64,000 bases of DNA from Betaproteobacteria bacterium. GTDB taxonomy: Bacteria; Pseudomonadota; Gammaproteobacteria; Burkholderiales; Burkholderiaceae_C. Positions 5,487-39,318 of this stretch are shown in pieces (position 1 is the first letter of the stretch; every line of letters begins with the position of its first letter). The notes under the pieces are model-generated. The model had not been told where the DNA came from. It saw only the letters and a list, made by a program, of their open reading frames with translations, and ran no database searches. The DNA lies in contig JANLPN010000392.1 of the NCBI GenBank assembly GCA_031367285.1, positions 197-64,196 of the forward strand, given 5' to 3'. The translations under genes were made by a program, and so were the position numbers.

Positions 5487-5514
5487 AGGGTTAACCCTTA
5501 TTTACTGACCAGTA
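5487..5514. promoter_or_regulatory. AGGGTTAACCCT palindrome plus TACT-N4-AGTA operator core
   Basis: AGGGTTAACCCT 5487-5498 and TACTGACCAGTA 5503-5514 in an AT-rich intergenic region upstream of the 5.6-15.1 kb operon. Confidence 0.55.
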
Positions 5515-5604
5515 GTTAATAAATACCATACGGCATATCTGCAATCTTGTTAGTAAATTGTGGCATGTGCAAGCCGGAGTCTTCCCGGCCCCGGCCCCTG
5601 GCGA

Positions 5605-7190: not shown

Positions 7191-8077
7191 GCGGGATGGC
7201 CACCCACAACGCTTGGGGCCGCTGGGGCGCCGAGGACGAGCGCGGCGCGGTCAACACCATCGGCCCCGACCAGGTGCGCCGGGCCACGGCCCTGGTACGC
7301 ACCGGCGAGGTGCTGCGGCTGGCGCAACTGTTGTCCGACAAGACGCCGGTGCCGGCGCACCGTTGCGGTCTGCAACATTTCATGGGCCGGGACGGCGGCG
7401 ACTACGCCATCGCCGGCAGCAAACGCCCAGGTGGTTTCCAGTTTGCCGAAGACTCGGTGGTGATGCCGCTGCACATTGGCACCCATGTGGACGCCTTGTG
7501 CCACGCCTGGTACGACGACAAACTCTACAACGGCTACCTGGGCGACACGATACGCAGCACTACCGGCGCGGGGCGGCTCGGGGTCGAGAAAATGCCGCCG
7601 GTCGTGACGCGCGGCGTCTTGCTGGATTTTGTGCGGCTCAAGGGGCGTGTGCTGGCCGACGGTGAATCCATTGGTGTGGCCGACCTGGAAGCCGCGGCGG
7701 CGGCGGCCGGTGTACAGATTGAGAAGGGCGACGCGGTGTTGCTGCGTACCGGCTGGCTGGAAGCGCAAAAGGGTGTGAAACACCCGTCCTTCAACGAGGA
7801 ACCCGGCATCGACGTGGACGCGGCCCTGTGGCTGGCCGAGCGCTCGGTAGCCATGGTGGGCGCCGACAACTTTGCCATCGAGGTCCTGCCGTTTGCCCCG
7901 GGCAAGGTGTTTCCGGTGCACCAGTTGCTGATCCGCGACTACGGTGTGCCGCTGCTCGAAGGGCTGATGCTCGACCCCCTGGTGGCCAGCGGCCGCCATG
8001 AGTTCCTGTTTGTGGCCAGCCCCTTGCCCATTGTCGGCGCCACCGGCAGCCCGCTGGCGCCGGTAGCCGTACTTTGA
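7187..8077 (+). CDS. Cyclase-family (KynB/isatin hydrolase-like) metal-dependent amidohydrolase
   Basis: HxGTHxD metal motif (HIGTHVD), GDAVLLRTGW, GADN, LLEGL. ATGA-coupled to the upstream gene. Confidence 0.88.
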   Translation: MSGMATHNAWGRWGAEDERGAVNTIGPDQVRRATALVRTGEVLRLAQLLSDKTPVPAHRCGLQHFMGRDGGDYAIAGSKRPGGFQFAEDSVVMPLHIGTHVDALCHAWYDDKLYNGYLGDTIRSTTGAGRLGVEKMPPVVTRGVLLDFVRLKGRVLADGESIGVADLEAAAAAAGVQIEKGDAVLLRTGWLEAQKGVKHPSFNEEPGIDVDAALWLAERSVAMVGADNFAIEVLPFAPGKVFPVHQLLIRDYGVPLLEGLMLDPLVASGRHEFLFVASPLPIVGATGSPLAPVAVL

Positions 8078-8082
8078 AAACC

Positions 8083-9288
8083 ATGAAAAAACAAAGGCCG
8101 CTTGAGGGCATTCGTATCCTGGAGATCGCCTCGATGATTTTCGGCCCGGTGGCTGGGCAGTACCTGGGCGACATGGGCGCCGACGTGATCAAGCTTGAGC
8201 CGCCCGAAGGCGATTTGACGCGTTCGATAGGCCCGCGCCGGTCGCCGCGCATGGGCGCGTTTTTCCTGACCAGCAACCGCAGCAAACGCAGCATCGTGGT
8301 GGACCTGAAACGCCCCGAGGGTCGCGAAATACTGCAGCGCCTGGTCGCCAGGACCGACGTATTGCTGCATTCCATGCGCACGCCCGCCGCCAACCGGCTC
8401 GGGCTGGGGTATGAAACGCTGGTCAAGAGCAATCCGGCCCTGGTCTACTGCCATGTGACCGGTTATGGCGACGAGGGTCCCTACGGCGGCCGGCCCGCCT
8501 ACGACGACATCATCCAGGCCGCTTCGGGCCTGGCCATGATGCAGAAGGTGGTGGGCGGCGAGCCGCGTTTCGTGCCTACCATCATCGCCGACAAGATCAG
8601 CGGTGTACACGCGGCCTACGCCATCGTGCTGGCATTGATGCACCGCATGCGTACCGGAGAGGGGCAGCAGGTCGATGTGGCCATGTTCGAAACCATGGCG
8701 GCGTTCAATATGATGGAACACCAGTGGGGCCACGCTTTTGAGCCGCCGCTGGGCCCCATGGGTTATGCGCCGGTGATCTCGGCGGCCCGGCGACCCTACC
8801 GTACACAAGACGGGTACCTGGCGCTGCTGCCGTATTCGGATACGCACTGGCGGCGCTTTTTCGAGCTGGCCGGTGAGCCGCAAATCATGCAGGACGAGCG
8901 CTTCGCGACCTTTGCCGCGCGCCAGAAACATTTTCGCGCGGTGTGGGACGAGATCGAGCGCCAGGTCGCGCGCAAGACCAATGCCGAATGGTTGCGCCTG
9001 CTGACACCCGAGGACATTCCGTTCTCCCCGGTCAACGACATGCAAGACCTGCCCAACGACCCGCACCTCAAGGCGGTGAACTTCTGGAGTGTTGCCGAAC
9101 ACCCCACCGAAGGCAAGCTGCTGATCCCGGCCAACCCGCTGCGCATGAGCGCGTCGCCGCCCGAGGTAACCCGCTTGCCGCCCACACTGGGCCAGCACAG
9201 CGCCGAGATTCTGCGCGAATACGACTATGACGAGACCGACGTGGCACGGATGACCGCTGCGGGCGGAACCTGCGCTGCCGACATTTGA
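8083..9288 (+). CDS. Class III CoA-transferase (CaiB/BaiF family)
   Basis: PLEGIRILE, LGDMGADVIKLEPPEGD, NRSKRS, IADKISG (catalytic Asp), PPTLGQHS. Alternative TTG start 8074. Confidence 0.93.
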   Translation: MKKQRPLEGIRILEIASMIFGPVAGQYLGDMGADVIKLEPPEGDLTRSIGPRRSPRMGAFFLTSNRSKRSIVVDLKRPEGREILQRLVARTDVLLHSMRTPAANRLGLGYETLVKSNPALVYCHVTGYGDEGPYGGRPAYDDIIQAASGLAMMQKVVGGEPRFVPTIIADKISGVHAAYAIVLALMHRMRTGEGQQVDVAMFETMAAFNMMEHQWGHAFEPPLGPMGYAPVISAARRPYRTQDGYLALLPYSDTHWRRFFELAGEPQIMQDERFATFAARQKHFRAVWDEIERQVARKTNAEWLRLLTPEDIPFSPVNDMQDLPNDPHLKAVNFWSVAEHPTEGKLLIPANPLRMSASPPEVTRLPPTLGQHSAEILREYDYDETDVARMTAAGGTCAADI

Positions 9289-9301
9289 CCTGGCCCGTAC
9301 C

Positions 9302-10462
9302 ATGATTCCACGCACTATCTTCAGCTCTGACCACGATGCGTTTCGCGACAGCGTACGCCGCTTCATCACCGAGCATGTGACGCCCCACCACGCCGACTGG
9401 GAGAAGGCCGGCCAGGTGCCGCGCGAGCTCTGGACCAAGGCCGGTGAACTGGGCCTGCTGTGCTGCAACGTGCCCGAGCAATACGGCGGCATGGGCGGCG
9501 ACTTCCTGTACAGCACCCTGCTGATCGAGGAGATGGCGCGTGCGGGGGCCACCGGGCCGACCTTCTACCTGCATTCGGACATCTGCGCGCCCTACCTGGT
9601 GGACTTTGGCACCGAGGAGCAAAAACAGAAGTGGCTGCCCAAAATGGCCACCGGCGAAGTGGTGGCGGCGCTTGGCATGAGCGAGCCGTCGGGTGGCAGC
9701 GACGTGCAGGCCATGCGCACGCAGGCCATCCGCGACGGCGACGAATACGTCATTGACGGCCAGAAAGTGTTCATCACCAATGGCCACAGCGCCGACCTGC
9801 TCATACTGGCCTGCAAGACCGACCCCAAGGCGCGCGGCAAGGGCGTGAGCCTGATCCTGGTCGAGACCAACCGGCCCGGCTTCACACGTGGCCGCAAGCT
9901 GGAGAAGCTGGGTTGCAAGGCGCAGGACACGTCCGAGCTTTTCTTTGCCGACCTGCGGGTTCCGGTGGGCAACCTGCTAGGCCATGAAGGCGGCGGCTTC
10001 GCCATGCTGATGACGCAGCTGTCGCAGGAACGCCTGGTGCAGGCGATTCGTGGGGTGGCCAGCTCCGAAGCGGCGCTGCAGTGGACGATTGCCTATGTGA
10101 GCGAACGCAAGATGTTCGGCCAGACACTGGGCGACTTCCAGAACACGCGCTTCAAGCTGGCCGAGCTGCACGCCGAAGTGCTGGCCCAACGCGTGTTCGT
10201 GGACCGCTGCATCGAGCTGCACCTGGCGGGCAAGTTCGATGCCACCGACGCCGCAGCGGCCAAACTTGTCACCACCGAGCTGCAGGGCCGCGTGATGGAC
10301 CAGTGCCTGCAGTTCTTCGGCGGCTGGGGTTATATGTGGGAATACCCGATTGCCCGCGCCTTTGCCGATGCGCGCATGTGCCGCCTGGGCGGCGGCACGG
10401 CCGAGGTGATGCGGCAAATCATCGGCAACTCGTTATTGCCCAAGGTGCGCAAGGCGGCATGA
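9302..10462 (+). CDS. Acyl-CoA dehydrogenase (LCAD/IVD-type catalytic Glu position)
   Basis: MSEPSGGSD, GQKVFITNG, KLGCKAQDT, SQERL, FGGWGYMWEYPIAR, GGGTAEVM. Confidence 0.95.
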   Translation: MIPRTIFSSDHDAFRDSVRRFITEHVTPHHADWEKAGQVPRELWTKAGELGLLCCNVPEQYGGMGGDFLYSTLLIEEMARAGATGPTFYLHSDICAPYLVDFGTEEQKQKWLPKMATGEVVAALGMSEPSGGSDVQAMRTQAIRDGDEYVIDGQKVFITNGHSADLLILACKTDPKARGKGVSLILVETNRPGFTRGRKLEKLGCKAQDTSELFFADLRVPVGNLLGHEGGGFAMLMTQLSQERLVQAIRGVASSEAALQWTIAYVSERKMFGQTLGDFQNTRFKLAELHAEVLAQRVFVDRCIELHLAGKFDATDAAAAKLVTTELQGRVMDQCLQFFGGWGYMWEYPIARAFADARMCRLGGGTAEVMRQIIGNSLLPKVRKAA

Positions 10463-10474
10463 ACATGTCCGCCA

Positions 10475-11161
10475 TTGGCCACGGGATTCAAGGGAACAAG
10501 CGCCGTGCATGACGATATGCGCCTGGCAGTGCAAAGCTTGAAGCGCGAGCGTATCGTGGCGGTGGCGGTGGACCTGTTTTACCTGCAGGGTTTTGGCCAG
10601 ACCACTCTGGACCAGGTGGCCGAGCAGATGGGCATGACCAAGCCCTTTATCTACGTTCATTTCCACTCCAAGGGCGAGTTGCTGGCAGCCATCTGCGCCC
10701 AGGGCATCCGGGTCTCGCTGGGTGCGATCGACCGTGCGTTGGCATCGGGCGGATCGGCGCGCCAGCGGCTCACCGCATTTGCGCACGGCTTCACGCTGGC
10801 GGTGCTGGAGAGCCAGAAACATGTGGCGATCTATACCCGCGAAGAAAAAAACCTGGCGCCGGCCGACTGCGATGCGATCCAGCGCATGCGGCGTGAATTC
10901 GACCGCAAGCTGACCGGCCTGCTGGACCAGGGCGTTGCCAGCGGGGAGTTCCAGATCAGCGAGCCGCCGCTGGCGGCGCTGGCCATCGGTGGTATCGCGA
11001 GCTGGGCCTGCGTCTGGTTCAGACCCGGCGGTCGCCTGGCCGCCAGCGAAATTGCACAACACATGGCGGCCTTGATGCTGGCCATGGTCAAGGCCGACAG
11101 AAGCGGCCAACCGGCCGGCATGGCCGATCAAGTTTTACGACCCGAGGAGACAACTTCATGA
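10475..11161 (+). CDS. TetR-family regulator with KstR2/PaaR-like C-terminal domain; start uncertain
   Basis: HTH GFGQTTLDQVAEQMGMTKPFIYVHFHSK; C-term GVASGEF...AIGGIASW..VWFRPGGRL. Alternative start ATG 10517. Confidence 0.88.
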   Translation: MATGFKGTSAVHDDMRLAVQSLKRERIVAVAVDLFYLQGFGQTTLDQVAEQMGMTKPFIYVHFHSKGELLAAICAQGIRVSLGAIDRALASGGSARQRLTAFAHGFTLAVLESQKHVAIYTREEKNLAPADCDAIQRMRREFDRKLTGLLDQGVASGEFQISEPPLAALAIGGIASWACVWFRPGGRLAASEIAQHMAALMLAMVKADRSGQPAGMADQVLRPEETTS

Positions 11162-12141
11162 TTACCCGCCGCAAAATAGTTCAGGCCGCAGTGGCAACCA
11201 GCGTCGCGCATTGGCTGACGCCGACACACGCACAGACCACCAATTGGCCCGAACAAGCGGTCAAGATAGTGGTGCCGTTCACGGCCGGGGGCGCCTCCGA
11301 CGTGTTGACGCGTATGCTGGCCGAAAAGCTGCAGGGCCGGCTGGGCCAGAACTTCGTGGTGGACAACCGCACCGGTGCGGGCGGCAATATCGGCATGGAG
11401 GCGGTCAAGAACGCACCGGCCGACGGCTACACGATTTCCTCCTCGACCATCGGCACCTTGTCGATCAACCAGTTCCTGTTCGCCAAGCTCGGCTACGACC
11501 CGGTGGCCGACTTCGCCTACGTGTCGATGATCTGGGAAAACTGCAATGTGTTCGTGGTTGCGTCCCAGCATCCCGCCAAGACGGTGCAGGAGTTCCTGGT
11601 CTGGGCGCGCAAGCAGCCCAAGGGCGTGACCTTCGGTTCCGCCGGCGTGGGAACCACGCCGCACCTGGCGGGCGAGCTGTTTCGTGCCCGCACCGGCATC
11701 ACGGCACTGCACATACCGTACCGCGGTGCCGCGCAGTCGATGCCTGCCCTGATGGCCGGCGACACCGATTTCGCGATTGATAACATCGCAAGCTACCTGC
11801 CCCTGATCAAGAGCGGCAAGGTGCGTGCGCTGGCGGTTACGGCGGGGGCACGCTGGCCCACGCTGATGGAGGTGCCAACCATGGCGGAGGCGGGCGTGCG
11901 CGACTTCATCATCACGTCCTGGGGCGCTTTTGTGGTACCCAAGGGCACCCCGGTCGCGATCATCAACAAATTGTCGGGCGCGGTGCAGGCCATTGCCGCC
12001 GAACCGGCCATGCAGCAGCGTTTTCTGGAGAGCGGCGCACGGGCGGTCGCGTCCACGCCGGCCGAGACGGCGGCGTTTGCCGAACGCGAACGGGTGAAGT
12101 GGAAAGAAGTGGTGCAGATCTCCGGCGCCAAGATGGACTAA
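11158..12141 (+). CDS. Bug/TctC-family substrate-binding protein, Tat-like signal
   Basis: TRRKIV twin-Arg; PFTAGGASD, DNRTGAGGNIG, PYRG motifs. Confidence 0.93.
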   Translation: MITRRKIVQAAVATSVAHWLTPTHAQTTNWPEQAVKIVVPFTAGGASDVLTRMLAEKLQGRLGQNFVVDNRTGAGGNIGMEAVKNAPADGYTISSSTIGTLSINQFLFAKLGYDPVADFAYVSMIWENCNVFVVASQHPAKTVQEFLVWARKQPKGVTFGSAGVGTTPHLAGELFRARTGITALHIPYRGAAQSMPALMAGDTDFAIDNIASYLPLIKSGKVRALAVTAGARWPTLMEVPTMAEAGVRDFIITSWGAFVVPKGTPVAIINKLSGAVQAIAAEPAMQQRFLESGARAVASTPAETAAFAERERVKWKEVVQISGAKMD

Positions 12142-13451
12142 TGCAAAGCTCAAAACCAACGCCACGCCGCGTGGCCGTCATCGGTGCCGGTGCCGGCGGC
12201 CTGTGCGCCGCCAAATACCTGCTGGCACGCGGGGTCGAAGTGGTGGTGTACGAGCTGGGCTCCCACGTCGGCGGCTTGTGGGTTTACCAGAACGACAGCG
12301 GCCTCGGGCCCGCCTACCAGTCGCTGCACCTCAACTCGGAGGCGCGCGTCACGGCCTACAAGGACTTCCCGTTTCCCGAAGGCGGCCCGCTGTATCCGGA
12401 CCACGTCCAGGTGCATGCTTACCTGAAAGCGTATGCCGAACGCTTCGACCTGCTGCGCCACATCCGCTTTCGCGCGCGGGTGGTCAACCTGGTCCCGCAG
12501 GGCGGCAAGTGGCAAGTCCAGTTGGGTGACGGTAGCAGCGCGGACTTCGACGCCGTGGTGGTGGCCAGCGGGCACCAGGGCGTGCCAACCCATCCGGAAT
12601 GGAAGGACCAGTTCACGGGTGAATACCTGCATTCGCACAGCTACCGGGTGCCGGAGCCGTTTCGCGGCAAACGGGTGCTGGTGGTGGGCATGGGCAACAG
12701 CGCGGTGGACATTGCCTCCGACATCTGCGTCGTGGCCCAATCCACCACCATCGTGGCGCGTTCACCGGTGCTGGTGATGCCGCGTATGTTGTTCGGCGTG
12801 CCGACCTCGCGGGTACTGGGCAAGCTGGAAAAAAGCTGGATGCCGTGGCCGGTGCGGCGCACCGTCCGCGAGATCCTGACGTCCATCGTGCATGGCCGCA
12901 TGGAGCAATGGGGCTTTACCACGCCCAAGAGCCGCACCCACCCGACCAGCCATCCGAACCTGATGTCGCACTTTGTCTGGGACCGTATCAAGGCCAAACC
13001 GGCCATCACGTCGGTCCAGGGCAACCAGGTGCAGTTCGTGGACGGCAGCCAGGGCAGCTACGACGTGGTGATTGCCGGCACCGGGTATGCCGTGGACCTG
13101 CCGTTTCTGGCGCCTGAGCTGCGCCCGCTGGACGGGCACCGGATCGAGCTGTTCCTGAGGGTGGTGCATCCGCGCCAGAGAGGCCTGTATTTCACCGGCA
13201 TGTTCAATGTGGCCGGCGGCGGCAACATCCGCATGATGGACGACCAGGCCGAATGGATCAGCGAGCTGGTGTGTGGCGACAAGGCCTTGCCCGATGAGGC
13301 GCGGATGCGCCGCGTGATGGAGGAGGAGCAGGCCTTCCTGCGCAACCACTACCCCGGCAGCGCACGGTATGCACTGGAGCTCGACCCCACGTTCTACCGC
13401 CGGCAGCTGGCGCGCGAGCGCCGGCGTGGCGCTGTCGGGCAGCCGGCCTGA
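12141..13451 (+). CDS. Flavin-containing monooxygenase (FMO, class B)
   Basis: GAGAGG, GGLW, FMO fingerprint FTGEYLHSHSY, second Rossmann GMGNSA. TAATG overlap with upstream stop. Confidence 0.9.
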   Translation: MQSSKPTPRRVAVIGAGAGGLCAAKYLLARGVEVVVYELGSHVGGLWVYQNDSGLGPAYQSLHLNSEARVTAYKDFPFPEGGPLYPDHVQVHAYLKAYAERFDLLRHIRFRARVVNLVPQGGKWQVQLGDGSSADFDAVVVASGHQGVPTHPEWKDQFTGEYLHSHSYRVPEPFRGKRVLVVGMGNSAVDIASDICVVAQSTTIVARSPVLVMPRMLFGVPTSRVLGKLEKSWMPWPVRRTVREILTSIVHGRMEQWGFTTPKSRTHPTSHPNLMSHFVWDRIKAKPAITSVQGNQVQFVDGSQGSYDVVIAGTGYAVDLPFLAPELRPLDGHRIELFLRVVHPRQRGLYFTGMFNVAGGGNIRMMDDQAEWISELVCGDKALPDEARMRRVMEEEQAFLRNHYPGSARYALELDPTFYRRQLARERRRGAVGQPA

Positions 13452-13526
13452 AACAGGCGTAACCCGAGGAGACAACATGGACATCGAGCCCCTTACCCAA
13501 GTTATCCAGGTCACCCAGGAGGCCCC

Positions 13527-14681
13527 ATGACACTGCGTGACAAAGCCTGTATGACAGGCATAGGCGAAACCGCGTACGTGCGCGGCTCGACCAGGACCGC
13601 GTTCGAACTGCAGATCGAGTCATCGCTGAAGGCGATAAACGACGCCGGGCTGACACCGAAGGACATTGACGGCATCATCCCGATCGGCATCGTGAGCGGC
13701 ACCGCCGACGACTTTATCGACAACTTCGGCCTGCCCGACCTGCGCTTTTCGGCCGTGGTGCCGCATGGCGGCGCAAGCCCGGCGATGGCGCTGCAATGCG
13801 CCGCCGCGGCGGTGGCATCGGGCGCCTGCAACCATGTGCTGATCACCTTCGGGCGCAACGTGAGCGCGGCGTCCAACAAGGCCGGCGCGCGTATCCACGG
13901 CATGCCGCAGTTCCACTACGTGACCGAGTTCGAACACCCCATGGGCGCCAGTGCACCTGCGCAGCTGTACGCACCGATGGCACGCCGCCACATGGAGCTG
14001 TATGGCACCACGGTGGAGCAGTTTGGCGAAGTGGCCGTGGCCTGCCGCCAGCACGCCTTGCTAAACGGCAACGCCATCATGAAGAAGCCCATCACGCTGG
14101 CGGATCACCGCAATTCGCGCATGATCGCCGACCCGTTCCGCCTGCTCGACTGCAGCCTGGAGAGCGACGGCGGCGCGGCGGTCATCGTGAGTTCCGCCGA
14201 GCGGGCCGCCGACCTGCGGCACCGGCGGGTCTATATCTCGGGGGTTGCCGAAGGCCACCCCGACCAGCCGGGCGCCATCACCCAGCGCCCTGACATGACC
14301 AGCCTGGGGATAGCCAAGGCGGCGCCGCGCGCCTTCCGGATGGCCGGTGTGACACACGCCGACATCGATGTGGCCGAGATCTACGACTGCTTCACCTACG
14401 CGGTGATCCGCCAGCTTGAAGACATGGGTTTCTGCGCCAAGGGCGAAGGCGGGCCGTTTGTGCAGGGTGGGCGCCTGCGGCTGGGCGGCGCGCTGCCGAC
14501 CAACACCCACGGCGGCCTGTTGTCGCAGGCCCATGTGTGGGGCTTGAACCATATCGTTGAACTGGTAAGGCAGCTGCGCGGCGACGCGGGAGCGGCCCAG
14601 GTGGCGAATGCCGAAATCGGTCTGGTCACCGGTTATGGCGACCTGGGCGACGGTGCCCTGGCCATCATGCGAAGGGGGTAA
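13527..14681 (+). CDS. SCP2/Ltp2-like thiolase-fold protein lacking the canonical nucleophilic Cys
   Basis: DPFRLLDCSLESDGGAAVIV, EIYDCFT, NTHGGLLSQAH. The Cys position reads HGGASP. Confidence 0.85.
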   Translation: MTLRDKACMTGIGETAYVRGSTRTAFELQIESSLKAINDAGLTPKDIDGIIPIGIVSGTADDFIDNFGLPDLRFSAVVPHGGASPAMALQCAAAAVASGACNHVLITFGRNVSAASNKAGARIHGMPQFHYVTEFEHPMGASAPAQLYAPMARRHMELYGTTVEQFGEVAVACRQHALLNGNAIMKKPITLADHRNSRMIADPFRLLDCSLESDGGAAVIVSSAERAADLRHRRVYISGVAEGHPDQPGAITQRPDMTSLGIAKAAPRAFRMAGVTHADIDVAEIYDCFTYAVIRQLEDMGFCAKGEGGPFVQGGRLRLGGALPTNTHGGLLSQAHVWGLNHIVELVRQLRGDAGAAQVANAEIGLVTGYGDLGDGALAIMRRG

Positions 14682-14686
14682 CAGCC

Positions 14687-15124
14687 ATGACCACCACACA
14701 TACAGCCACCACCCCCGCCGCCGCATCCACGAGCAAGCCGCCGCAGACACCGAGCGCCTTGTCGGGGCCCTATTGGGCGGCTGCCGCCGAAGGCCGGCTG
14801 GTGATACAATGCTGCACCGCCTGCGGCAAGCTGCGCCACTATCCGCGACTGATATGCGACACCTGTTACTCCGATGCCGTGCACTGGGTGCCCGCCACCG
14901 GGCGCGGCACCCTCCATAGCTGGACCGTGTCGCACCATGCGTTTCACCCATCCTTCGCGGCTGAGCTACCGTATGCGCTGGTCACGGTCGATCTTGAAGA
15001 AGGCGTGCGCGCGCTGGGGCGCTGGCGTGGGGACGTGCCGCTCTCGATCGGGTTGCCGGTACAGGGGAACTTTGAGGCGCGTGCGGGTGGGGTGGACCTG
15101 GTGTTTGTGCCGCGTTCGGATTGA
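14687..15124 (+). CDS. DUF35 Zn-ribbon/OB-fold acyl-CoA-binding partner protein
   Basis: CTAC...YPR..CDTC zinc ribbon, GTLHSWT, PYALVTVDLEEG. Directly follows the thiolase-like gene. Confidence 0.9.
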   Translation: MTTTHTATTPAAASTSKPPQTPSALSGPYWAAAAEGRLVIQCCTACGKLRHYPRLICDTCYSDAVHWVPATGRGTLHSWTVSHHAFHPSFAAELPYALVTVDLEEGVRALGRWRGDVPLSIGLPVQGNFEARAGGVDLVFVPRSD

Positions 15125-15290
15125 CGGTGCCGGTTTTCAGTTTCGTTGGTCCGAAAAGTTTTTCGCCCCGTGTTGCGCATCTTGCGCGGACAGACACCTT
15201 CCAGAGCTGTCGAACCGGGTTCCGGACCGGGCCGCTGCTGATTGCGCTCCCACGTTGCCCGGACCGCGGCGCGCTCGGGGAGTCCGTCGC

Positions 15291-15306
15291 TATACTGGCA
15301 AGTATG
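15291..15306. promoter_or_regulatory. TATACT-N4-AGTAT(G) operator overlapping a probable -10 box and the TetR start codon
   Basis: TATACTGGCAAGTATG. The ATG at 15304 lies in the right half-site, 7 nt after TATACT. Confidence 0.7.
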
Positions 15307-16023
15307 AAAAAAGCCCCTGCTCGCAAGCTCCAAGAACCCGTCAAGGCAAAGTCCTCCAGGAGGACTTTGGCCAGCGCAAACCAGATAGAAGACATCCGTG
15401 ACGCCGTTTCCCGGCTGAAGCGCGAGCGCATTATCTCCACGGCGGTCGATCTGTTTTACAGCCAGGGCTTTGGCAACACCACGCTCGAAGCGGTGGCCGA
15501 GAAGATGAACGTGACCAAGCCTTTTATCTATTCCCACTTCAGTTCCAAGAACGATCTGCTGGCCGCCATATGTTCCCACGGCATCGGGGCTTCGCTCGAC
15601 GTGTTGAACCGCGTTGTTGCGTCCAGCGGCTCACCCACTGAAAAGATGCAGGTGCTGGCGCGCGACTTCATGCTGGCGGTGATCGAGAACCAGGGACACA
15701 TCGCGATCTATACGCGCGAGCAGAAACATTTGTCGAAGGAAAACAGCGACGCCATCGACAACATGCGGCGCGAGTTTGATCGCAAATTCTGCGCTCTGCT
15801 CGGTGAAGGCGTGGCGGCGGGCGAGTTCATGGTGGACGACGTGCAGATGGCGTCACTGGCCATCGGCGGCATCGTGAGCTGGTCCTATGTGTGGTACCGC
15901 CCGAACGGCCGCCTGTCCGCGCCTGACACCGCGGAGCGCATCTCCGATCTGGTGCTGGCGATGATCCAGGTCAAGCCGGCGCGCCGCAAACGCGCGCGCA
16001 CGGTGGCCAACCAAGCGGCCTAG
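15304..16023 (+). CDS. TetR-family regulator (KstR2/PaaR-like), paralog of 10475 gene
   Basis: LKRERIISTAVDLFYSQGFGNTTLEAVAEKMNVTKPFIYSHF shares the TKPFIY helix with the first TetR. Confidence 0.92.
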   Translation: MKKAPARKLQEPVKAKSSRRTLASANQIEDIRDAVSRLKRERIISTAVDLFYSQGFGNTTLEAVAEKMNVTKPFIYSHFSSKNDLLAAICSHGIGASLDVLNRVVASSGSPTEKMQVLARDFMLAVIENQGHIAIYTREQKHLSKENSDAIDNMRREFDRKFCALLGEGVAAGEFMVDDVQMASLAIGGIVSWSYVWYRPNGRLSAPDTAERISDLVLAMIQVKPARRKRARTVANQAA

Positions 16024-16053
16024 GGCCGCAGCCGGGGCCGCGGCGCCGGTGTG

Positions 16054-17163
16054 TCAGGGTGCGGTTGGCAGCCCACCCAGCACTTCAGCGGTGTGTTGCC
16101 CAAGGGCCGGGGCCTGGCAGGTAATGGTGCCGCCTTGCCCGTTCAGCAACAGCGGCTGGCGCAAAAATGTCTGGCGGCCGTTGTTGCCGTCCATGCCGAC
16201 CGTCATGTTGCGCGCACGCATCTGCGGGTCGTCCAGCACCTCGTGCAGGCGCCGCACCGGACCAAAGGCGATGCCTTCGGATTCCAGCCGCTGGTACAAG
16301 GCCTCATAGGGCCAGCGCGTTATGGCAGACCGCAGATGGGGTTCGATCTCCTTCGCGCGGTCGCTGCGTTCCTGTTCGCGCAGCGCCGCATACTGTTCCA
16401 GCGACAGCAGGCGGCACAAGGCGGCCCACATGTGGTCCTCACCCGCGATGCTGAGCGTGATCTGCCGGCCGTCGGCGGTGGCAAACAGGCCGTAACCGGG
16501 GTCCAGCGGCGGCAGGGTGCGTGTCGGCAGGCCGTTGATCGGCGGCACCAGGAAAGGTGTCATCCAGCTGACCAGCGAATCGAGCATGGAGACGTCAATG
16601 GCGGCGCCCTGGCCGGAACGCGAACGGGCGAACAGCGCCGTGACCACCCCCAGAGCCGCGAACATGGCCGACGAGATATCGGCCAGCGGCAATACGGGCA
16701 AGGACAGCCCGGCTTCCTGCCCCAGAGGTACGTCAATCATGCCGGCGGCCGCCTGGATGCTCAGGTCGTGGCCGGCCAGGCCGGTCTGCGGCCCGTTCTG
16801 CCCGAATGACGAAATGGACACGAACACCAGTGACGGCTTGCGCGCCAGCAGCACCTCGGAGCTGATTTGCAGGCGCGCCATGACGCCGGGGCGATAACCC
16901 TCCAGCACCACGTCCGCGCTGTCCACCAGGCGCAGGAACTGCTCCCGGTCCGCCGCGGCCTTGAGGTCCAGCACGACCGAACGCTTGTTGCGGTTGAAGG
17001 ATGCAAACAGCCCCGGAAAACGGCGTGACGGGTCGCCGCTGCCGGGCCTCTCGACCAGGATCACGTCCGCGCCCAGGTCGGCCAGCAGCATCGTGGCGTA
17101 GGGTCCGGGATATTGCTCTGCCAGGCTCAGGACCCGAACACCGGTCAGGGGGAGAGTTACCAC
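16054..17163 (-). CDS. Class III CoA-transferase (CaiB/BaiF family)
   Basis: PLTGVRVL, LGADVILVE, NRNKRS, GHDL, PLADISS, APALGQHT. GAGG RBS before GTG. Confidence 0.93.
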   Translation of the reverse strand: MVTLPLTGVRVLSLAEQYPGPYATMLLADLGADVILVERPGSGDPSRRFPGLFASFNRNKRSVVLDLKAAADREQFLRLVDSADVVLEGYRPGVMARLQISSEVLLARKPSLVFVSISSFGQNGPQTGLAGHDLSIQAAAGMIDVPLGQEAGLSLPVLPLADISSAMFAALGVVTALFARSRSGQGAAIDVSMLDSLVSWMTPFLVPPINGLPTRTLPPLDPGYGLFATADGRQITLSIAGEDHMWAALCRLLSLEQYAALREQERSDRAKEIEPHLRSAITRWPYEALYQRLESEGIAFGPVRRLHEVLDDPQMRARNMTVGMDGNNGRQTFLRQPLLLNGQGGTITCQAPALGQHTAEVLGGLPTAP

Positions 17164-17193
17164 GCGAGGCCTCCTCGTTTATTGGGATTATTT

Positions 17194-17209
17194 TATACTC
17201 ACCAGTATA
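17194..17209. promoter_or_regulatory. Perfect TATACT-N4-AGTATA operator
   Basis: TATACTCACCAGTATA, 31 bp upstream of the minus-strand CoA-transferase start. Confidence 0.72.
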
Positions 17210-17445
17210 TCATCGTTACTGGCAAATATATTGTGCACCGATATTGGCGCTTTGGTCGGCAGCGCGATCTTCGCGCCGCGCCACCCTGAACGCACCTCGC
17301 TCAAGGAATCGCCGCATGCGGTGACGCACGGTGCCTTGGGCGAGCCTCGACCCGCAGATCGAAGGCGGAACTGGTAAGCCCGCGCGTGCAGACCGTATCG
17401 CCAATTCCAGTGAAGCAACTCCCGTCAGGCAAGGATTTGCTCTTC

Positions 17446-18666
17446 TCACTCGTTCAATGCGGCGCAAAACCGCGGTTCGGCCAGTGCCGATATCAGCCTG
17501 CGCCGCTCGGCGAGTGTTGTCGCTCGGATATCGGCCACGCCGTACTCCGTGACAACGACGTCGACGTCACTTTGCGCCGATGTCACGTAGGCGCCGGCGA
17601 TGCGCGCCACCACACGGCTTTTCGATGCCGCACCGACGGTGGTGGCCGGCAGGGCAACAATTGCGAGCCCCCCCGGAGAGCGGCGTGCCGCGCGGAAGTA
17701 GTCGGATTGCCCGCCGACCGCACCGACATAACGTGTGCCGACAAACTCCGCGTTCACCTGTCCGAACAGGTCCACCTCGATCGCGGAATTGATCGCCATG
17801 AAAGGCGCACCAGCCACCTGACCGCCCGGCGCGACCAGTTGCGCCGGCACTGCGAAGCCGAGCACGCCGTCCGCGCCGGCGAAATCGTAAAGGCCGCGGG
17901 TGCCGACCGCGAGCGACGCCATACACGCCTCGCGATCGGTGGTGTTGATTGCGCCGCTGGCCACCAGTTCAGGCAACCAGTCGCCCACCATGCCGGATCG
18001 AACCCTGAGTCCGCGATGCTGGGACAGCGCGCGCGCGACCGCCGCCGCCATGCTGCCGATGCCCAACTGGATGATCGCGCCGTCGGGCACCAGTCGCGCG
18101 ACGTTGCGGCCGATGATCAGCTGCCGCGCGTCCGGTGCTTCGTTCAGGACTTCGGGCAGCGGCAGGTCGCTCTCGCGCGCGACGACCACGCGACTGCAAT
18201 GCAAGCGGCAGACCGAGCGGGTTCGCGGCACATTCGGGTTGATTTCGACCAGCACGACGCGCGCGGCCTGCGCGGCGCTCCACACATAGTCAACCGCGCA
18301 ACCGAGGCTGTGGTAACCCTCTTTGTCAGCCGGCGAAACCTGCAGCAGCACGACATCGGCCTTGAGCACGCCGGACTCGAAGTACGACGTCAGTTGCGAC
18401 AACTGCGCTGGAATCACGCGCGCCGCGCCGCGCCCAACGACGTGACGGATCGACCCCATGCCACAGTAGGTCGTCACGCGCAGCGCCGGGTCGATAGCAG
18501 CGCCCCAGGCCGGGTTGAGCGAATAGCCGCAGAACACGTTCAGTTGCCCAAGCCCGGCCGCGAGCCCGAACAATTCATCCACCAGCCCTGGCGGCTCGCC
18601 GGTCGTCTGGCCTACGACCACGCGATCGCCGCTGCGCAGATAGTGGGCCAAGACGGAGCGGTCCAT
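17446..18666 (-). CDS. Acetyl-CoA hydrolase/transferase family (4-hydroxybutyrate CoA-transferase-like)
   Basis: IQLGIG, INSAIEVDLFGQVNAE, GGQSDY, VVTEYGVA. The expected catalytic HSEM reads RSGM. Confidence 0.87.
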   Translation of the reverse strand: MDRSVLAHYLRSGDRVVVGQTTGEPPGLVDELFGLAAGLGQLNVFCGYSLNPAWGAAIDPALRVTTYCGMGSIRHVVGRGAARVIPAQLSQLTSYFESGVLKADVVLLQVSPADKEGYHSLGCAVDYVWSAAQAARVVLVEINPNVPRTRSVCRLHCSRVVVARESDLPLPEVLNEAPDARQLIIGRNVARLVPDGAIIQLGIGSMAAAVARALSQHRGLRVRSGMVGDWLPELVASGAINTTDREACMASLAVGTRGLYDFAGADGVLGFAVPAQLVAPGGQVAGAPFMAINSAIEVDLFGQVNAEFVGTRYVGAVGGQSDYFRAARRSPGGLAIVALPATTVGAASKSRVVARIAGAYVTSAQSDVDVVVTEYGVADIRATTLAERRRLISALAEPRFCAALNE

Positions 18667-18702
18667 GCGCGCGCTTCAATCCTTACGCGGCTTGCACGGA
18701 TG

Positions 18703-19833
18703 TCAGGCCGTCTTGGCCGATCCGGCTTCAAGCCAAGCCGGCGGGCGACCGGCGATGGTCAGCGTCATGCTGCCAGTCCCGGTGCTGGCGGCTCCATCGA
18801 AATCGGCCTTAATTCCGACCGGCTGGATGCGGTGCCAATGCTCCTTTTCGGACCCGTCGGGATAGACCACCTTCGACGGGTGCGAGAGGTCATAAACGTC
18901 GGACTCAAGGTGATTCTGGGCACGGAAGGCGCCCAGCCCGCGGCCGTCCTCGTATCCGCCGCTGTAGCCCAGGCCCTGCATCGCGATTGCCGCGCCCAGC
19001 GCGGTGAGGTCCATCACCAGGAGCTTGCCGTCGCTGAAGGTCGCGCGCACCTGGGCCGTCCGAAACCGGCGCGTACCCGGATGCAGGTCAGCCGCAAGCT
19101 CGATCTTCTGCACGACGTGAACAGCCTCGGTGGCGCGCTCGGTCACCACGCCGGTCGTATACGGTTCATCGTCGCCGCGCCGCTCGAAAAGCAGGTGTCC
19201 GCTCATCGAGTCGGTGGAGAAGAACAGGAAGGACATCACATGCCCCTTCTGCGCGAGCGTGACTTTCGGTCCGGTGACCGGCTCGGGCACGCCCATGCCG
19301 CGGCGCACGCCCCAGGAGTGATCGCGGCAGGACCACCAGTCAGCTATATCGATGCGCTGTCCGCCCGCCTCCATCCAGCCGCTGGCCAGTCCGATCTGGT
19401 CGAAGCGGCGGTAGTCCTGCACGGTGCGCCCATGCAGCCGCTCGTAATGCGGATGCTCTTCGTGCGCGGGCTCGACGCAGCGCCATTTGATAGCCCCTGA
19501 AATCCCGTGCGCACCCGGTGCGATAGCGATCTCAAACTCCTCCAGCGGCTTCACGGGCGTGATGCGCATCGGACCGCATTCGGTCTCCGCATTGCGGTCG
19601 AGCGCGCGCGACACCCGGAGGTTGTACTGCTTGCCGCCCACGGTCATTACCGCACCGCCATCGAGTACGTTCATGTTGCGATAGGCGCCCATGGTGATCT
19701 GGATCGCCACCCGGCCGTCCCGCGAATAGATGGCGAACCAGTAGCGATCGAAGAACCGCGGATCGCTGGTCCAGACGTGGTCGAAGGTAGTCGGCAGCTG
19801 GTGCCAGAGGGTGTCGTCGAGCTTGGTCAGCAT
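18703..19833 (-). CDS. Uncharacterised protein, probable CrtC/AttH/tocopherol-cyclase-like beta-barrel
   Basis: 376 aa, aromatic-rich (FFDRYWFAIY, RDHSWGVR). TGATG-coupled to the upstream gene. Fold call is inference. Confidence 0.6.
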   Translation of the reverse strand: MLTKLDDTLWHQLPTTFDHVWTSDPRFFDRYWFAIYSRDGRVAIQITMGAYRNMNVLDGGAVMTVGGKQYNLRVSRALDRNAETECGPMRITPVKPLEEFEIAIAPGAHGISGAIKWRCVEPAHEEHPHYERLHGRTVQDYRRFDQIGLASGWMEAGGQRIDIADWWSCRDHSWGVRRGMGVPEPVTGPKVTLAQKGHVMSFLFFSTDSMSGHLLFERRGDDEPYTTGVVTERATEAVHVVQKIELAADLHPGTRRFRTAQVRATFSDGKLLVMDLTALGAAIAMQGLGYSGGYEDGRGLGAFRAQNHLESDVYDLSHPSKVVYPDGSEKEHWHRIQPVGIKADFDGAASTGTGSMTLTIAGRPPAWLEAGSAKTA

Positions 19834-20288
19834 CAGGGGGCCTTCGCGGGTGTGGCAGCAGTGGAGACGTAGCGCATCGGCGCACGCGCGGCGCGCGCGC
19901 TCATGTGCGCAAGCGCCGCATCGCGCATTGCGGGGGTGAGACGGGTGCCGCTCAGCACCTGCGAAAGAAGGTCGCGCAGTTCGCAATTGCGTTGCTCGAG
20001 CGCCGTCATTTCGGTGGCGTCGGGTTCGGGCCGTGCCAGGGCCAGCGCGATGGAAGCGGCCAGCTCCGGTGCGACGACAGCCCGCAGCTGCCCAAGCAGC
20101 TTGGCCGTCGCCCGATTGTCGCCATAGAGGAATCCAGGAACCGCCGGCAGCGCGCCGGTCAACATGCGCAGGTTGGCGATCAGGCCTTCGAGCATGGTGC
20201 GCGCGTACGGATCGGCGACGCAGGGGGAGACGACCTTTTCGAGAATCCGGCAGGTCCCGAGCAATTGCTCTTCGACGGTAGGCCTCAT
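19833..20288 (-). CDS. Small helical hypothetical protein, LvaB/DUF6285-like
   Basis: GGAGG RBS then MRPTVEEQLLGTCRILEKVVSPCV...LIANLRML, which resembles the recalled RPTxxELL...LxxxVxP...AN pattern. Lies after an APH kinase. Confidence 0.55.
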   Translation of the reverse strand: MRPTVEEQLLGTCRILEKVVSPCVADPYARTMLEGLIANLRMLTGALPAVPGFLYGDNRATAKLLGQLRAVVAPELAASIALALARPEPDATEMTALEQRNCELRDLLSQVLSGTRLTPAMRDAALAHMSARAARAPMRYVSTAATPAKAP

Positions 20289-20412
20289 TCGGTAACCTCC
20301 GCTCCGCGAGCCGCGGAATTCGCCCTTGGGAGCGGCCCGGCGGTGCTCACTGGAGTACCTTCGCACTGCGTGCTGCGGTGCGAGCTTGCTTGGGAACGGT
20401 CCGGCGCGGCGC

Positions 20413-21483
20413 TCATGACGTGTGCTCCATCAGCTGAAACATCGGACGGTATAGCCAGGTAGGCGTCTGGAACACGCGGTCGTAGCGGCCGGCGACGAAC
20501 TCGCTCACGGCAGTCAACTGGATGACGGCCAACTTCCAGCAGGAAAAGACGTTCCACCATCGCAGCGCCGTTTCATCGACTCGGCGCCCGGTGAGCGCAC
20601 GGTAAGCGGCGACGATCTGCTCACGCTCCCAGACGCCGGCAATCTGGTGCTCGCGCTTGCGCACCGGGTTGGTCACCCAGCCAAGATCCTCGAGCGGGTC
20701 GCCCAGGTGCGCGGTTTCCCAGTCGAGCTTCGCGCTGATTCGGTCACCCTCGATTAGCGCGTTGCCTGGCTTGAAGTCGCCATGCACGAGAACGATCGCT
20801 TCGGCCTCCGGTGCGCCCTGGCGCATCCAGGCGAGCACGTAGTCGAGTTCGGGATGGGGCTCGAGCCGCACCCGGCGGTACTCTGCCTCCCAATGCGCGA
20901 GTTCCACCAGCGAAGGCTTCCCGGTCGGCGTCTCAAGTACCTCGCTTAAGGCCAGGGCACGCCAGTCGACCGCGTGAATGCGCGCCATGAGGTCGATGAA
21001 TGCACGCGCCAGGTTCAGGCGCGCTTCGAGCGGGCGATCTCCGTTGAGCACCATGTAGTCGCAGGTCCCGAACATGCGATCCATGACCAGCGACGGTGCG
21101 CCAAGCCACTGGCCGTCGTGGTCCAGCCAGTGTGCCTTGGGCGCCGGCACGGATGCCCCTTCCAGGGCCCTGAGCAACGCGAACTCGCGCCTGCGGTCGG
21201 TGGAAAGCAGCGTCCCGGCGGCATCGCGCATGAGCATCAGGCGGTGCGACTGCGCGCCGGTCGCGTCGACCCAGGTCGCATCGAGCGACCAGTTCTCACG
21301 CGACAATCCCCCCGCGGCACGCTCCACACCGACGAAACCGAAATCGTGTGCCGTGGGAATTGCATCGATGATCAGTGCTTTCAGGCCGGCGACGACTCGC
21401 TCGGCCGGGGTCGCCGCGCCGCCGCCATGCGCATCGGCCTGATTGGTGGCCGGCGCATCTGATGTCTTCAGGTCGTTGTCCAT
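20413..21483 (-). CDS. APH-family phosphotransferase, LvaA/ACAD10-11 kinase-like
   Basis: GGLSRENW, REFALLRAL..VPAP, Brenner motif LVHGDFKPGN, LDWETAHLGDPLEDLGW. Confidence 0.88.
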   Translation of the reverse strand: MDNDLKTSDAPATNQADAHGGGAATPAERVVAGLKALIIDAIPTAHDFGFVGVERAAGGLSRENWSLDATWVDATGAQSHRLMLMRDAAGTLLSTDRRREFALLRALEGASVPAPKAHWLDHDGQWLGAPSLVMDRMFGTCDYMVLNGDRPLEARLNLARAFIDLMARIHAVDWRALALSEVLETPTGKPSLVELAHWEAEYRRVRLEPHPELDYVLAWMRQGAPEAEAIVLVHGDFKPGNALIEGDRISAKLDWETAHLGDPLEDLGWVTNPVRKREHQIAGVWEREQIVAAYRALTGRRVDETALRWWNVFSCWKLAVIQLTAVSEFVAGRYDRVFQTPTWLYRPMFQLMEHTS

Positions 21484-21485
21484 CG

Positions 21486-21584
21486 CTAGTTCGCCTTGCG
21501 CACTTTTGGCAACAGCGCGTTGCCGATGATCTGCTTCATCACCTCGGCGGGGTGGGCCTGCATCAGGCGTATGGTTTCATACAT
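21486..21584 (-). pseudogene. 32-aa chimeric remnant ending in an acyl-CoA dehydrogenase C-terminus
   Basis: MYETIRLMQAHP-AEVMKQIIGNALLPKVRKAN* versus intact ACAD end AEVMRQIIGNSLLPKVRKAA*. Confidence 0.8.
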
Positions 21585-21735: not shown

Positions 21736-21770
21736 TACGCATTAGTAGTTCATAATTACTGCTAAGTATA
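21736..21770. promoter_or_regulatory. Two tandem TACN-N4-AGTA operator sites in a divergent promoter
   Basis: TACGCATTAGTA 21736-21747 and TACTGCTAAGTA(TA) 21757-21770, with a 21-bp period. Confidence 0.62.
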
Positions 21771-22015
21771 GGCGCGCTACGGATGCCTTGGCAAGATCGG
21801 AAAAAAGTTGGCGATCGCGGATTTTTTAGTACCATTTTTTAAAAACGCGGAGACATGTCGAGAGTTCGAAACCGCTTCAAACGCCTGGCCGTGTTCGTGC
21901 TGGCCACGCTGCTGGTTCGAGCTGGTCGCCCAACACCGCTGCCGGTGCACCGCACCGGCAAGCTGCGGCGGCAGTACCGGAGCCATCGCGCTCCATCCAA
22001 AGAAGGAGACACCTG

Positions 22016-39283: not shown

Positions 39284-39318
39284 CCCAAGCGACCCAAGCG
39301 ACCCAAGCGACCCAAGCG
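39283..39318 (+). repeat. Intergenic tandem repeat (ACCCAAGCG)x4
   Basis: Four exact 9-mers starting at the esterase stop codon. Confidence 0.95.

Follow-up and report, generated by a model that had tools for sequence, protein, structure and literature searches.

Organization of the locus

Four genes on the minus strand form a cassette at 21483..17446 of the 64,000-nucleotide stretch of DNA that was analyzed (the window). The first encodes an APH-fold kinase, the second a helical protein of 151 aa, the third a protein of 376 aa, and the last an enzyme resembling 4-hydroxybutyrate CoA-transferases. An initial annotation had described five co-oriented elements here, these four genes and an ACAD remnant, and all five are present on the minus strand at the positions given below, along with the flanking features.

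21765..21794, minus strand: sigma-70-like promoter of the cassette (-35 TTGCCA, 18-nt spacer, -10 TATACT)
21736..21753, minus strand: operator-like motif ATGAACTACTAATGCGTA, a short distance 3' of the -10 hexamer
21487..21584, minus strand: 32-codon ORF with an ACAD 3'-end remnant (57-nt DNA match), not expected to be functional
20413..21483, minus strand: APH-fold kinase, 356 aa (PF01636, catalytic motifs), predicted to phosphorylate a substrate hydroxyl with ATP
19833..20291, minus strand: five-helix protein, 151 aa, remote DUF6285 relative, predicted kinase partner (LvaB-like role)
18703..19833, minus strand: Rv3169-family protein, 376 aa (NF053593, 25-PSL match), predicted phosphate-eliminating C-O lyase
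17446..18666, minus strand: 4-hydroxybutyrate-CoA-transferase-family enzyme, 406 aa (PF13336 and PF02550), final gene of the conserved cassette
17196..17213, minus strand: another copy of the operator-like motif, 5' to the CaiB-type gene
16054..17163, minus strand: CaiB-type family III CoA-transferase (PF02515, 2.8e-93), a separate transcription unit with the same motif
15121..16023, plus strand: TetR-family regulator (TetR_N and TetR_C_24), candidate repressor

The ATG of the 376-aa gene shares one base with the stop codon of the small gene (TGATG), an arrangement of translational coupling, and the CoA-transferase-like gene follows after ∼36 nt. The gap between the cassette and the CaiB-type gene is 282 nt and contains the latter's own copy of the motif. 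The cassette promoter, assigned from its consensus match alone, agrees with the consensus at 10 of 12 positions. The motif ATNANNTACTNNTNNGTA occurs at 21736-21753, 17196-17213, and 5503-5520, all three sites being intergenic and the last lying upstream of a plus-strand operon; no further copies were found in the 64 kb. At the cassette copy, a 49-nt segment is common to the region upstream of CaiB. The proposal of a common operator across the island holds to the extent that the cassette, the CaiB gene, and the plus-strand operon each carry the motif; the pattern was built from these same three sites, and the statistic for it is therefore post hoc. Either the TetR-family protein listed above or a second TetR_C_24 regulator at 10475-11161 is a candidate repressor acting at the shared motif.

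The kinase and its small neighbor

The kinase matches Pfam APH (PF01636) with an E-value of 4.7e-28 (99 bits versus a cut-off of 23.2), and it possesses both the catalytic loop VHGDFKPGN (HxDxxxxN) and the metal-binding Asp in LDWE. Its matches in the PDB include 9O56 (1e-19), 3DXP (3e-16), ACAD11 (8V3V, 7e-12), 3ATS (3e-11), and 9FSG (5e-8), the last of which is probably 25-HSK of Sterolibacterium denitrificans. We take 3ATS to be Rv3168, and this kinase falls outside the group of the window protein. Antibiotic kinases gave weaker scores (MphH, 1e-8; hygromycin kinase, 6e-5), consistent with the earlier assignment of the kinase to the LvaA/ACAD type rather than the antibiotic type: 9O56, 3DXP, and the ACAD11-type domains (1e-19 to 7e-12) score better than the macrolide and hygromycin kinases (1e-8 to 6e-5). 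In NCBIfam the APH(3') model is matched at 34 bits versus a cut-off of 205, and every antibiotic-type match is far under its cut-off. Support for the deep branching of the kinase tree is weak: the lyase-linked clade has a bootstrap value of 45%, and its placement as sister to a DUF6285-linked clade has one of 39%.

ACAD10 and ACAD11 require the CoA moiety of their substrates (PMC12440821), and a modeling study of ACAD11 has proposed arginines that contact CoA. The one beside the alpha-C Glu is retained in the window kinase as R99-E100; the second (in ACAD11, RQVSTW) is replaced by Val in the window kinase and is Arg in the Piscinibacter sakaiensis orthologue.

The small protein begins MRPTVEEQL, a start that is fixed by 151-aa homologues of 75-99% identity, and its family comprises 167 clusters. 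The AF2 model consists of five helices (pLDDT 95.7) for which no fold match was found in the PDB. No Pfam family matched the sequence, and DUF6285 (PF19802) was not reached even at E ≤ 10, although 2 of 88 relatives of the protein match DUF6285 at an E-value of 0.027. Alignment of the family with DUF6285 by hhalign gave an E-value of 6.9e-5 and a probability of 63%, which became 2.8e-6 and 88% over 70 columns with a broader profile, versus 0.02 and 2% for the reversed control; the alignment is in register from the N-terminus. The small gene lies directly 3' of the kinase gene in every recovered lyase-linked locus, whether recognized by HMM or by position alone, and this adjacency holds even where the lyase gene is upstream, divergent, or absent. 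A neighboring kinase group has a true DUF6285 gene in the same position in 16 of 16 cases, often beside an ACAD. The suggested LvaB/DUF6285 nature of the protein thus draws support from remote profile-profile homology and from kinase adjacency, but not from the Pfam threshold for DUF6285, and we regard the protein as probably an LvaB-like partner of the kinase.

The 376-aa protein belongs to the Rv3169 family

The 376-aa protein had been described as an unknown beta-barrel protein adding an extra step to the pathway. Instead, it is a member of the NCBIfam family NF053593 (Rv3169_fam), with 259 bits versus a cut-off of 150 over model positions 1-337 of 351, and a relative of the structurally solved 25-phosphosteroid lyase (25-PSL) of Sterolibacterium, whose N-terminal 186 aa reach 278 bits by themselves with that model. 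Comparison with 25-PSL (PDB 9FZN/9G4C) by phmmer gave an E-value of 3e-31 over residues 3-187, the N-terminal halves being ∼38% identical, and profile comparison gave 1e-34. The C-terminal half was aligned with 25-PSL neither by phmmer nor by profile. This half of the window subfamily differs from the remainder of the Rv3169 family, and the subfamily scores 259-268 bits on the family model versus 352-408 bits for other members. Across the family, 25-PSL included, 27 columns are invariant, among them seven arginines, His, Asp, and Glu, and the window protein retains all of them. A single-sequence structure model of the protein (pLDDT 36.6) was too poor for fold comparison. Because of its membership in NF053593 and the ∼38% identity of its N-terminal half to 25-phosphosteroid lyase, the one enzyme known for such an elimination, the protein is likely the phosphate-eliminating enzyme of the cassette and not the catalyst of an additional step.

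The ACAD remnant, the CoA-transferase, and the Baeyer-Villiger island

The final 19 residues of the 32-codon ORF, AEVMKQIIGNALLPKVRKA, are identical at 17 of 19 positions to the C-terminus of the ACAD encoded elsewhere in the window (9302..10462), and in the DNA, 57 nt (21492-21548) match 10456-10400 at 86% identity. The ORF gave no Pfam match. The complete ACAD is LCAD-like, with 2PG0 and human LCAD as its top PDB matches (∼1e-116), and ACAD11 is absent from its best 60 PDB matches. No ACAD of the LvaC or ACAD10/11 type is fused to the kinase or adjoins it; what is found there is just the 57-nt LCAD-like remnant. Elimination by an ACAD-fold enzyme as in LvaC, which had been proposed for this locus, is not supported by these results, since the remnant comprises 19 codons from an LCAD-like ACAD of the usual kind and the candidate for elimination is not ACAD-like.

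The last enzyme of the cassette contains the N- and C-terminal AcetylCoA_hydro domains (PF13336 and PF02550) and matches PDB entries 3D3U, 2OAS, and 3GK7 over its full length (1e-57 to 2e-51), the best of these being 4-hydroxybutyrate CoA-transferases. The equivalog TIGR03948 was not reached (153 bits versus 675), and we therefore name the enzyme to family level without a substrate. Baeyer-Villiger genes abound in the island, whose other products include three FMO-like proteins, one luciferase-like protein, two Abhydrolase_3 esterases, an SGL lactonase, and a thiolase-like/DUF35 pair.

Conservation of the cassette

The same four genes in the same order were found in metagenomic contigs, in P. 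sakaiensis, and in a Sphingomonadales MAG; the cassette is conserved in Burkholderiales and Sphingomonadales. In each of the six core loci that extend far enough, the CoA-transferase gene follows the lyase gene. The neighbors of those core loci that came with sufficient flanking sequence include BVMOs, Abhydrolase_3 esterases, PF04199 cyclase-family hydrolases, CoA ligases or transferases, an ACAD, and a thiolase with DUF35. The linkage to BVMO, esterase, and lactonase genes noted for the window extends to other genomes. More distant loci with the kinase and small genes, some also with the lyase gene, adjoin genes for P450s, flavin hydroxylases, luciferase-like monooxygenases, and MFS transporters, and no CoA enzymes were found in the distant lyase-linked loci. 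These neighbors fit a sequence of hydroxylation, phosphorylation, and elimination. Lyase-linked kinase genes usually adjoin a gene for an Rv3169-type lyase and not an ACAD; in the exception, L005, an ACAD gene is located ∼2 kb upstream.

Comparison with known systems

The 25-HSK/25-PSL pair of S. denitrificans (25-PSL structures: PDB 9FZN, 9G2I, and 9G4C) likewise combines an APH-fold kinase with an Rv3169-family lyase, and it carries out an ATP-dependent dehydration by way of a phosphoester. Its genes are not linked to each other, and the enzymes act singly on a free steroid, whereas in the window the kinase and lyase genes share a putative operon with genes for a small partner and a CoA-transferase. 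9FSG is only a distant relative of the window kinase, and the C-terminal half of the window lyase is divergent. In levulinate catabolism by Pseudomonas putida, LvaA and the 12-kDa LvaB phosphorylate 4-hydroxyvaleryl-CoA (PMC6692424). The LvaA-LvaB-LvaC system resembles the cassette in that a small partner gene comes after the kinase gene, and in it phosphorylation of the hydroxyl on a CoA-linked acid precedes elimination; unlike LvaC, the eliminating candidate in the window is not an ACAD. Mammalian ACAD10 and ACAD11 contain kinase domains of the same APH subgroup with an almost identical HGDFK..N loop, but the window kinase has no fused or adjacent LvaC-type ACAD and does not conserve one of the proposed CoA-contact arginines. 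The Rv3168-Rv3169 genes of Mycobacterium tuberculosis also place an APH-like kinase gene beside an Rv3169-family gene, presumably with neither a small partner gene nor a CoA-transferase gene. The two genes form an operon, and a TetR-family regulator represses it (PMC5340868).

A candidate ATP-dependent dehydration module

On balance, the sequence evidence somewhat favors the putative operon at 21483..17446 being an ATP-dependent dehydration module for a hydroxy acid or hydroxyacyl-CoA, best read as a cross between the LvaAB system and that of 25-HSK/25-PSL. The APH-fold kinase would phosphorylate the hydroxyl group with ATP, probably together with the small helical protein as its LvaB-like partner, and the Rv3169-family protein would then eliminate phosphate to generate a C=C bond. 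The 4-hydroxybutyrate-CoA-transferase-like enzyme may make or recycle the CoA thioester of the participating acid, and the alkenoyl product could enter β-oxidation-like steps via the LCAD-like ACAD and the thiolase-like/DUF35 pair. The general logic put forward in the initial annotation, phosphorylation of a hydroxyl followed by phosphate elimination, is supported.

The kinase and lyase might act on a neutral, non-CoA alcohol such as a terpenoid or steroid-like tertiary alcohol, with the CoA-transferase serving a later acid. We judge this unlikely, while granting it an appreciable chance: the only characterized kinase/lyase pair, 25-HSK/25-PSL, uses a free steroid, the distant loci pair these genes with P450s, flavin hydroxylases, and MFS transporters in place of CoA enzymes, and the second CoA-contact arginine of ACAD11 is not kept in the window kinase; however, the CoA-transferase-like gene just past the lyase gene is retained in every core locus, and acyl-CoA kinases are closer relatives of the kinase than 9FSG is. 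A route like that of LvaABC, in which the phosphate of a 4- or 5-phosphoacyl-CoA is removed by an ACAD-fold enzyme, with the beta-barrel protein performing some further step, could draw on the kinship of the kinase to ACAD11-type kinase domains, the remote DUF6285 relationship of the small protein, and the complete ACAD encoded 10 kb away. It appears quite improbable, as the kinase-adjacent ACAD is a 19-codon remnant, the island ACAD is LCAD-like with ACAD11 missing from its best 60 PDB matches, lyase-linked kinases, L005 excepted, usually sit beside an Rv3169-type lyase and not an ACAD, and the beta-barrel protein is homologous to a known phosphate lyase.

Its divergent C-terminal half and the lower bit scores of its subfamily would also suit an Rv3169-family protein that is a binding protein, hydrolase, or phosphatase, the phosphoester being either the end product or hydrolyzed. 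We consider this improbable: all 27 family-invariant positions are kept, linkage to the kinase is strict, and hydrolysis of the phosphate that the kinase had just added would amount to a futile cycle. The notion that the kinase is an aminoglycoside or macrolide resistance enzyme present here by chance is scarcely credible; APH(3') and other NCBIfam models do give weak matches, but all are far below their cut-offs, acyl-CoA-type kinases score better, and the four-gene cassette is conserved inside catabolic clusters.

For the dehydration module, the most likely substrate would be a hydroxy acid or hydroxyacyl-CoA derived from cyclic ketones or esters that have been opened by the BVMOs, lactonase, and esterases. 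Because neither 25-HSK/25-PSL nor the distant lyase-linked loci involve CoA enzymes, it is only the gene neighbors that point to a CoA ester. Baeyer-Villiger oxygen insertion prefers the more substituted carbon; hence, the target hydroxyl is plausibly one that no dehydrogenase can oxidize, such as that of a tertiary alcohol.

Organization of the cassette

All five co-oriented minus-strand features recognized in the initial annotation are present in the window, the first being a short ACAD remnant and the others the four cassette genes.

Features of the cassette
21584..21487, minus strand: 32-codon ORF containing the ACAD remnant
21483..20413, minus strand: kinase gene (356 aa; APH family PF01636, 4.7e-28), with VHGDFKPGN and LDWE
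20291..19833, minus strand: small gene, its start (MRPTVEEQL) set by many 151-aa homologues of 75-99% identity
19833..18703, minus strand: predicted Rv3169-family lyase gene (376 aa), its ATG overlapping the small-gene stop by one base (TGATG)
18666..17446, minus strand: CoA-transferase gene, with both acetyl-CoA hydrolase/transferase domains

The ACAD remnant is genuine though tiny: 57 nt (21492-21548) share 86% identity with the 3' end of the ACAD gene of the window (10400-10456), and 17 of 19 residues of the remnant peptide are the same as in the window ACAD. PDB comparison of the CoA-transferase identified 4-hydroxybutyrate CoA-transferases as the closest solved structures (1e-57). Upstream of the kinase gene lies a sigma-70-like promoter (21794-21765) with 10/12 consensus matches, directly followed by an operator-like motif that also occurs at 17196-17213, upstream of a CaiB-type gene, and at 5503-5520, an intergenic position upstream of a plus-strand operon where the surrounding sequence is palindromic (TTACTGACCAGTA). 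No further copies of the motif were found in the 64-kb window, a count that is descriptive only because the pattern was derived from those very sites. A 704-aa plus-strand ORF (17386-19500) was rejected as a gene, as it is antisense to the conserved CoA-transferase and lyase genes and is an artifact of the high GC content. No RNA runs holding the window sequence were found; the matching runs were all sediment, soil, or freshwater metagenomes.

The 376-residue protein is related to 25-phosphosteroid lyase

The protein that the initial annotation had left as an unknown beta-barrel is now placed in the NCBIfam "Rv3169 family" (259 bits versus a cut-off of 150); Pfam provided a sub-threshold match to DUF7065 and nothing else. 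Its sole PDB matches were chains named by their depositors as 25-phosphosteroid lyase (25-PSL; 9FZN, 9G2I, and 9G4C), with residues 3-187 aligning at about 38% identity (E 3e-31), and a profile built from 21 orthologues matched 25-PSL over the same residues (1e-34). The aligned 186 residues of 25-PSL alone scored 278 bits on the Rv3169 family model; thus, 25-PSL and the window protein are members of one curated family. In an alignment of the window protein, its counterparts from nine further loci, and the 25-PSL fragment, 27 columns were invariant, many of them Arg, Asp, or His; they include (window protein numbering) D6, H11, Q12, D24, R30, D58, R76, E126, R132, R136, R143, R170, D171, and R177. 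Orthologues at least 70% identical occur across Burkholderiales and are termed hypothetical in every source naming them. The single-sequence AlphaFold model of the protein had a pLDDT of 36.6.

The known enzymes of this type act in Sterolibacterium denitrificans, where a tertiary C25 alcohol is phosphorylated by the APH-like 25-hydroxysteroid kinase (25-HSK) and the lyase then eliminates phosphate to form a delta-24 alkene (PMC8449060; PMC11061730). As of 2021, the lyase gene of that organism was unidentified and was not near the kinase gene (PMC8449060), whereas the kinase and lyase genes of the window lie in one operon.

Phosphate elimination had initially been ascribed to an ACAD-fold protein like LvaC of Pseudomonas putida levulinate catabolism, a view that the ACAD sequences do not favor. 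The complete ACAD of the island (9302..10462) is closest to the conventional ACADs 2PG0 and human LCAD (about 1e-116), ACAD11 was not found among its best 60 PDB matches, and the remnant next to the kinase gene derives from this same gene. With no LvaC-type ACAD, the Rv3169-family protein is therefore the sole candidate here for the elimination step of a route like that of Lva or ACAD10/11.

The kinase and its predicted small partner

The best solved relatives of the kinase are 9O56 (1e-19), 3DXP (3e-16), mouse ACAD11 (7e-12), and 3ATS (3e-11), the last of which we take to be Rv3168. A further match (5e-8) was to 9FSG, which is probably 25-HSK. Macrolide and hygromycin kinases scored lower than the ACAD11-type relatives, and we rejected the antibiotic-kinase reading. 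Both ACAD10/11 and LvaA phosphorylate 4-hydroxyacyl-CoAs and require the CoA moiety (PMC12440821). Of two ACAD11 arginines proposed by modelling to contact CoA, one is retained in the window kinase (R99), and the other (in RQVSTW) is Val here but Arg in the Piscinibacter sakaiensis orthologue.

A genome scan using the kinase alignment revealed at least 80 loci, with 28-38% identity among the matches listed, in which the Pseudomonas lva operon was absent. The loci were searched for the small protein, the lyase, and DUF6285 by HMM and for an ACAD by probe. Kinases nearest that of the window are directly followed by a small gene of the same family and usually have an Rv3169-type lyase gene beside them; both are linked to the kinase in loci L010-L012, L014, L015, and L018-L021 from other genomes or contigs. 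In a second group, the small-gene position is occupied by a DUF6285 gene (DUF6285 by Pfam in 16/16 tested), often with an ACAD, and a third group, including ACAD11, 3DXP, and 9O56, is without a small gene. The neighbor-joining tree of the kinases is suggestive only, because bootstrap support was 45% for the lyase-linked group and 39% for its sister relation to the DUF6285-linked group, itself supported at 96%.

The proposed similarity of the small protein to DUF6285 was not visible to Pfam and emerged from profile-profile comparison. The protein had zero matches in Pfam, NCBIfam, or PDB sequence searches, its family comprises 167 clusters at 50% identity, and 2 of 88 members touched DUF6285 at E 0.027. 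Comparison of the family profile with the DUF6285 alignment yielded E 6.9e-5; when the profile was widened with divergent kinase-adjacent members, this became E 2.8e-6 with a probability of 88%, the match spanning 70 columns and staying in register from the N-terminus, versus E 0.02 (probability 2%) for a reversed-sequence control. The model obtained from the 88-sequence alignment has five helices (pLDDT 95.7), and Foldseek found no solved relative of it (best E 0.94). The small gene still follows the kinase gene where the lyase gene is upstream, divergent, or missing, as in L008, L016, and L017, among others. LvaB (12 kDa) binds LvaA and is required for phosphorylation (PMC6692424), and so we read the small protein as a probable LvaB-like kinase partner. 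The term "DUF6285" was found in no paper in our literature search.

Conservation and neighborhood of the cassette

Conservation of the neighborhood was borne out, as the four cassette genes recur in the same order in other genomes and contigs: metagenomic contigs L001-L004 (small protein 86% identical), Piscinibacter sakaiensis (L005), and a Sphingomonadales MAG (L006 and L007). In P. sakaiensis (L005 1-13199), the cassette forms the tail of a single co-directional cluster that starts with genes for a luciferase-like monooxygenase, flavin reductase, CoA ligase, PF04199 hydrolase, and CaiB-type transferase, continues with an ACAD, TctC, a thiolase-like protein, and a DUF35 protein, and ends with the kinase, small protein, lyase, and CoA-transferase. 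Nearly the same gene set occupies 6099-21483 of the window, but with the cassette inverted and with two TetR genes, an FMO-like gene, and a second CaiB-type gene in addition. Taken with the ACAD remnant, the inverted cassette points to a rearrangement. Three FMO-like BVMOs and one esterase are added in the Sphingomonadales locus, and the rest of the window encodes BVMOs, esterases, an SGL lactonase, a luciferase-like monooxygenase, and a CoA ligase.

Among Alphaproteobacteria and Deltaproteobacteria, the lyase- or small-gene-linked kinases adjoin P450s, FAD_binding_3 hydroxylases, luciferase-like monooxygenases, a dienelactone hydrolase, and MFS transporters, and no CoA enzymes adjoin these distant kinases. 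The theme common to the distant loci is an oxygenase, a kinase, and a lyase. In two Phenylobacterium loci (L011 6602-10918 and L018 5461-9379), the lyase gene and the kinase-small gene pair are divergent; Pfam identified, in L011, a P450 upstream of the kinase and an MFS transporter after the small gene, and the adjoining P450 suggests that the substrate is a P450-made alcohol. In L008, L016, and L017 (kinase at about 8000-9000), the kinase and small gene occur with no Rv3169-type lyase within 8 kb; L008 and L016 have a FAD_binding_3 hydroxylase upstream of the kinase, with a CaiB-type gene downstream in L008 and a dienelactone hydrolase in L016.

Proposed reaction

In the proposed reaction, the kinase with its small partner would form a phosphoester in an ATP-dependent step, and the lyase would remove the phosphate to yield an alkene, for a net ATP-dependent dehydration. 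The conserved CoA-transferase and the relatives of the kinase suggest a hydroxy acid, handled as its CoA ester, as the substrate, and the cassette neighborhood suggests that this acid arises by hydrolysis of a lactone or ester made by Baeyer-Villiger oxidation. Given Baeyer-Villiger regiochemistry and the steroid precedent, the hydroxyl may be tertiary or otherwise non-oxidizable.

The system is not of a new kind, because every part has a known relative. What appears new is the combination, in BVMO islands, of an LvaAB-like kinase pair and a CoA-transferase with a 25-PSL-type lyase that replaces the ACAD of the Lva system. This combination was not found in our literature search; the publication behind the 25-PSL structures, which was outside that search, may already discuss the Rv3169 family. 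We propose tentatively, at somewhat short of an even chance, that kinase, DUF6285-like partner, and Rv3169-type lyase constitute a widespread modular "ATP-driven dehydratase" that in aerobic bacteria is coupled to oxygenases (BVMOs, P450s, and flavin and luciferase-like monooxygenases) and converts non-oxidizable alcohols to alkenes, the window holding the first CoA-linked version. If so, a large family, known at NCBI just as "Rv3169 family protein" and labeled hypothetical by all sources, would be assigned phosphate elimination as its reaction, and LvaAB(C)/ACAD10-11 and 25-HSK/25-PSL, the two systems known to phosphorylate and eliminate, would have common, recombinable parts. The same logic would hint at how Baeyer-Villiger pathways clear hydroxyls beyond the reach of dehydrogenases, and would extend to the uncharacterized Rv3169/DUF7065 family and to Rv3168-Rv3169 of Mycobacterium tuberculosis, an operon repressed by the TetR regulator Rv3167c (PMC5340868), for which it would offer a testable hypothesis of function. 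The cassette could also serve as a biocatalytic dehydration module.

Other features of the window

The cyclase-CaiB-ACAD operon is headed by a gene of unusual architecture (6099-7190, plus strand), which combines a flavin reductase domain (PF01613) with an IclR C-terminal ligand-binding domain and lacks an HTH. Five TctC (Bug-type) receptor genes in the window, together with the nearest homologues, indicate an origin in Burkholderiales. A second catabolic block (38273-51240, plus strand) encodes an Abhydrolase_3 esterase and two FMO-like BVMOs, along with an SDR, a periplasmic binding protein, a TPP enzyme, a luciferase-like monooxygenase, a CoA ligase, and an IclR regulator.
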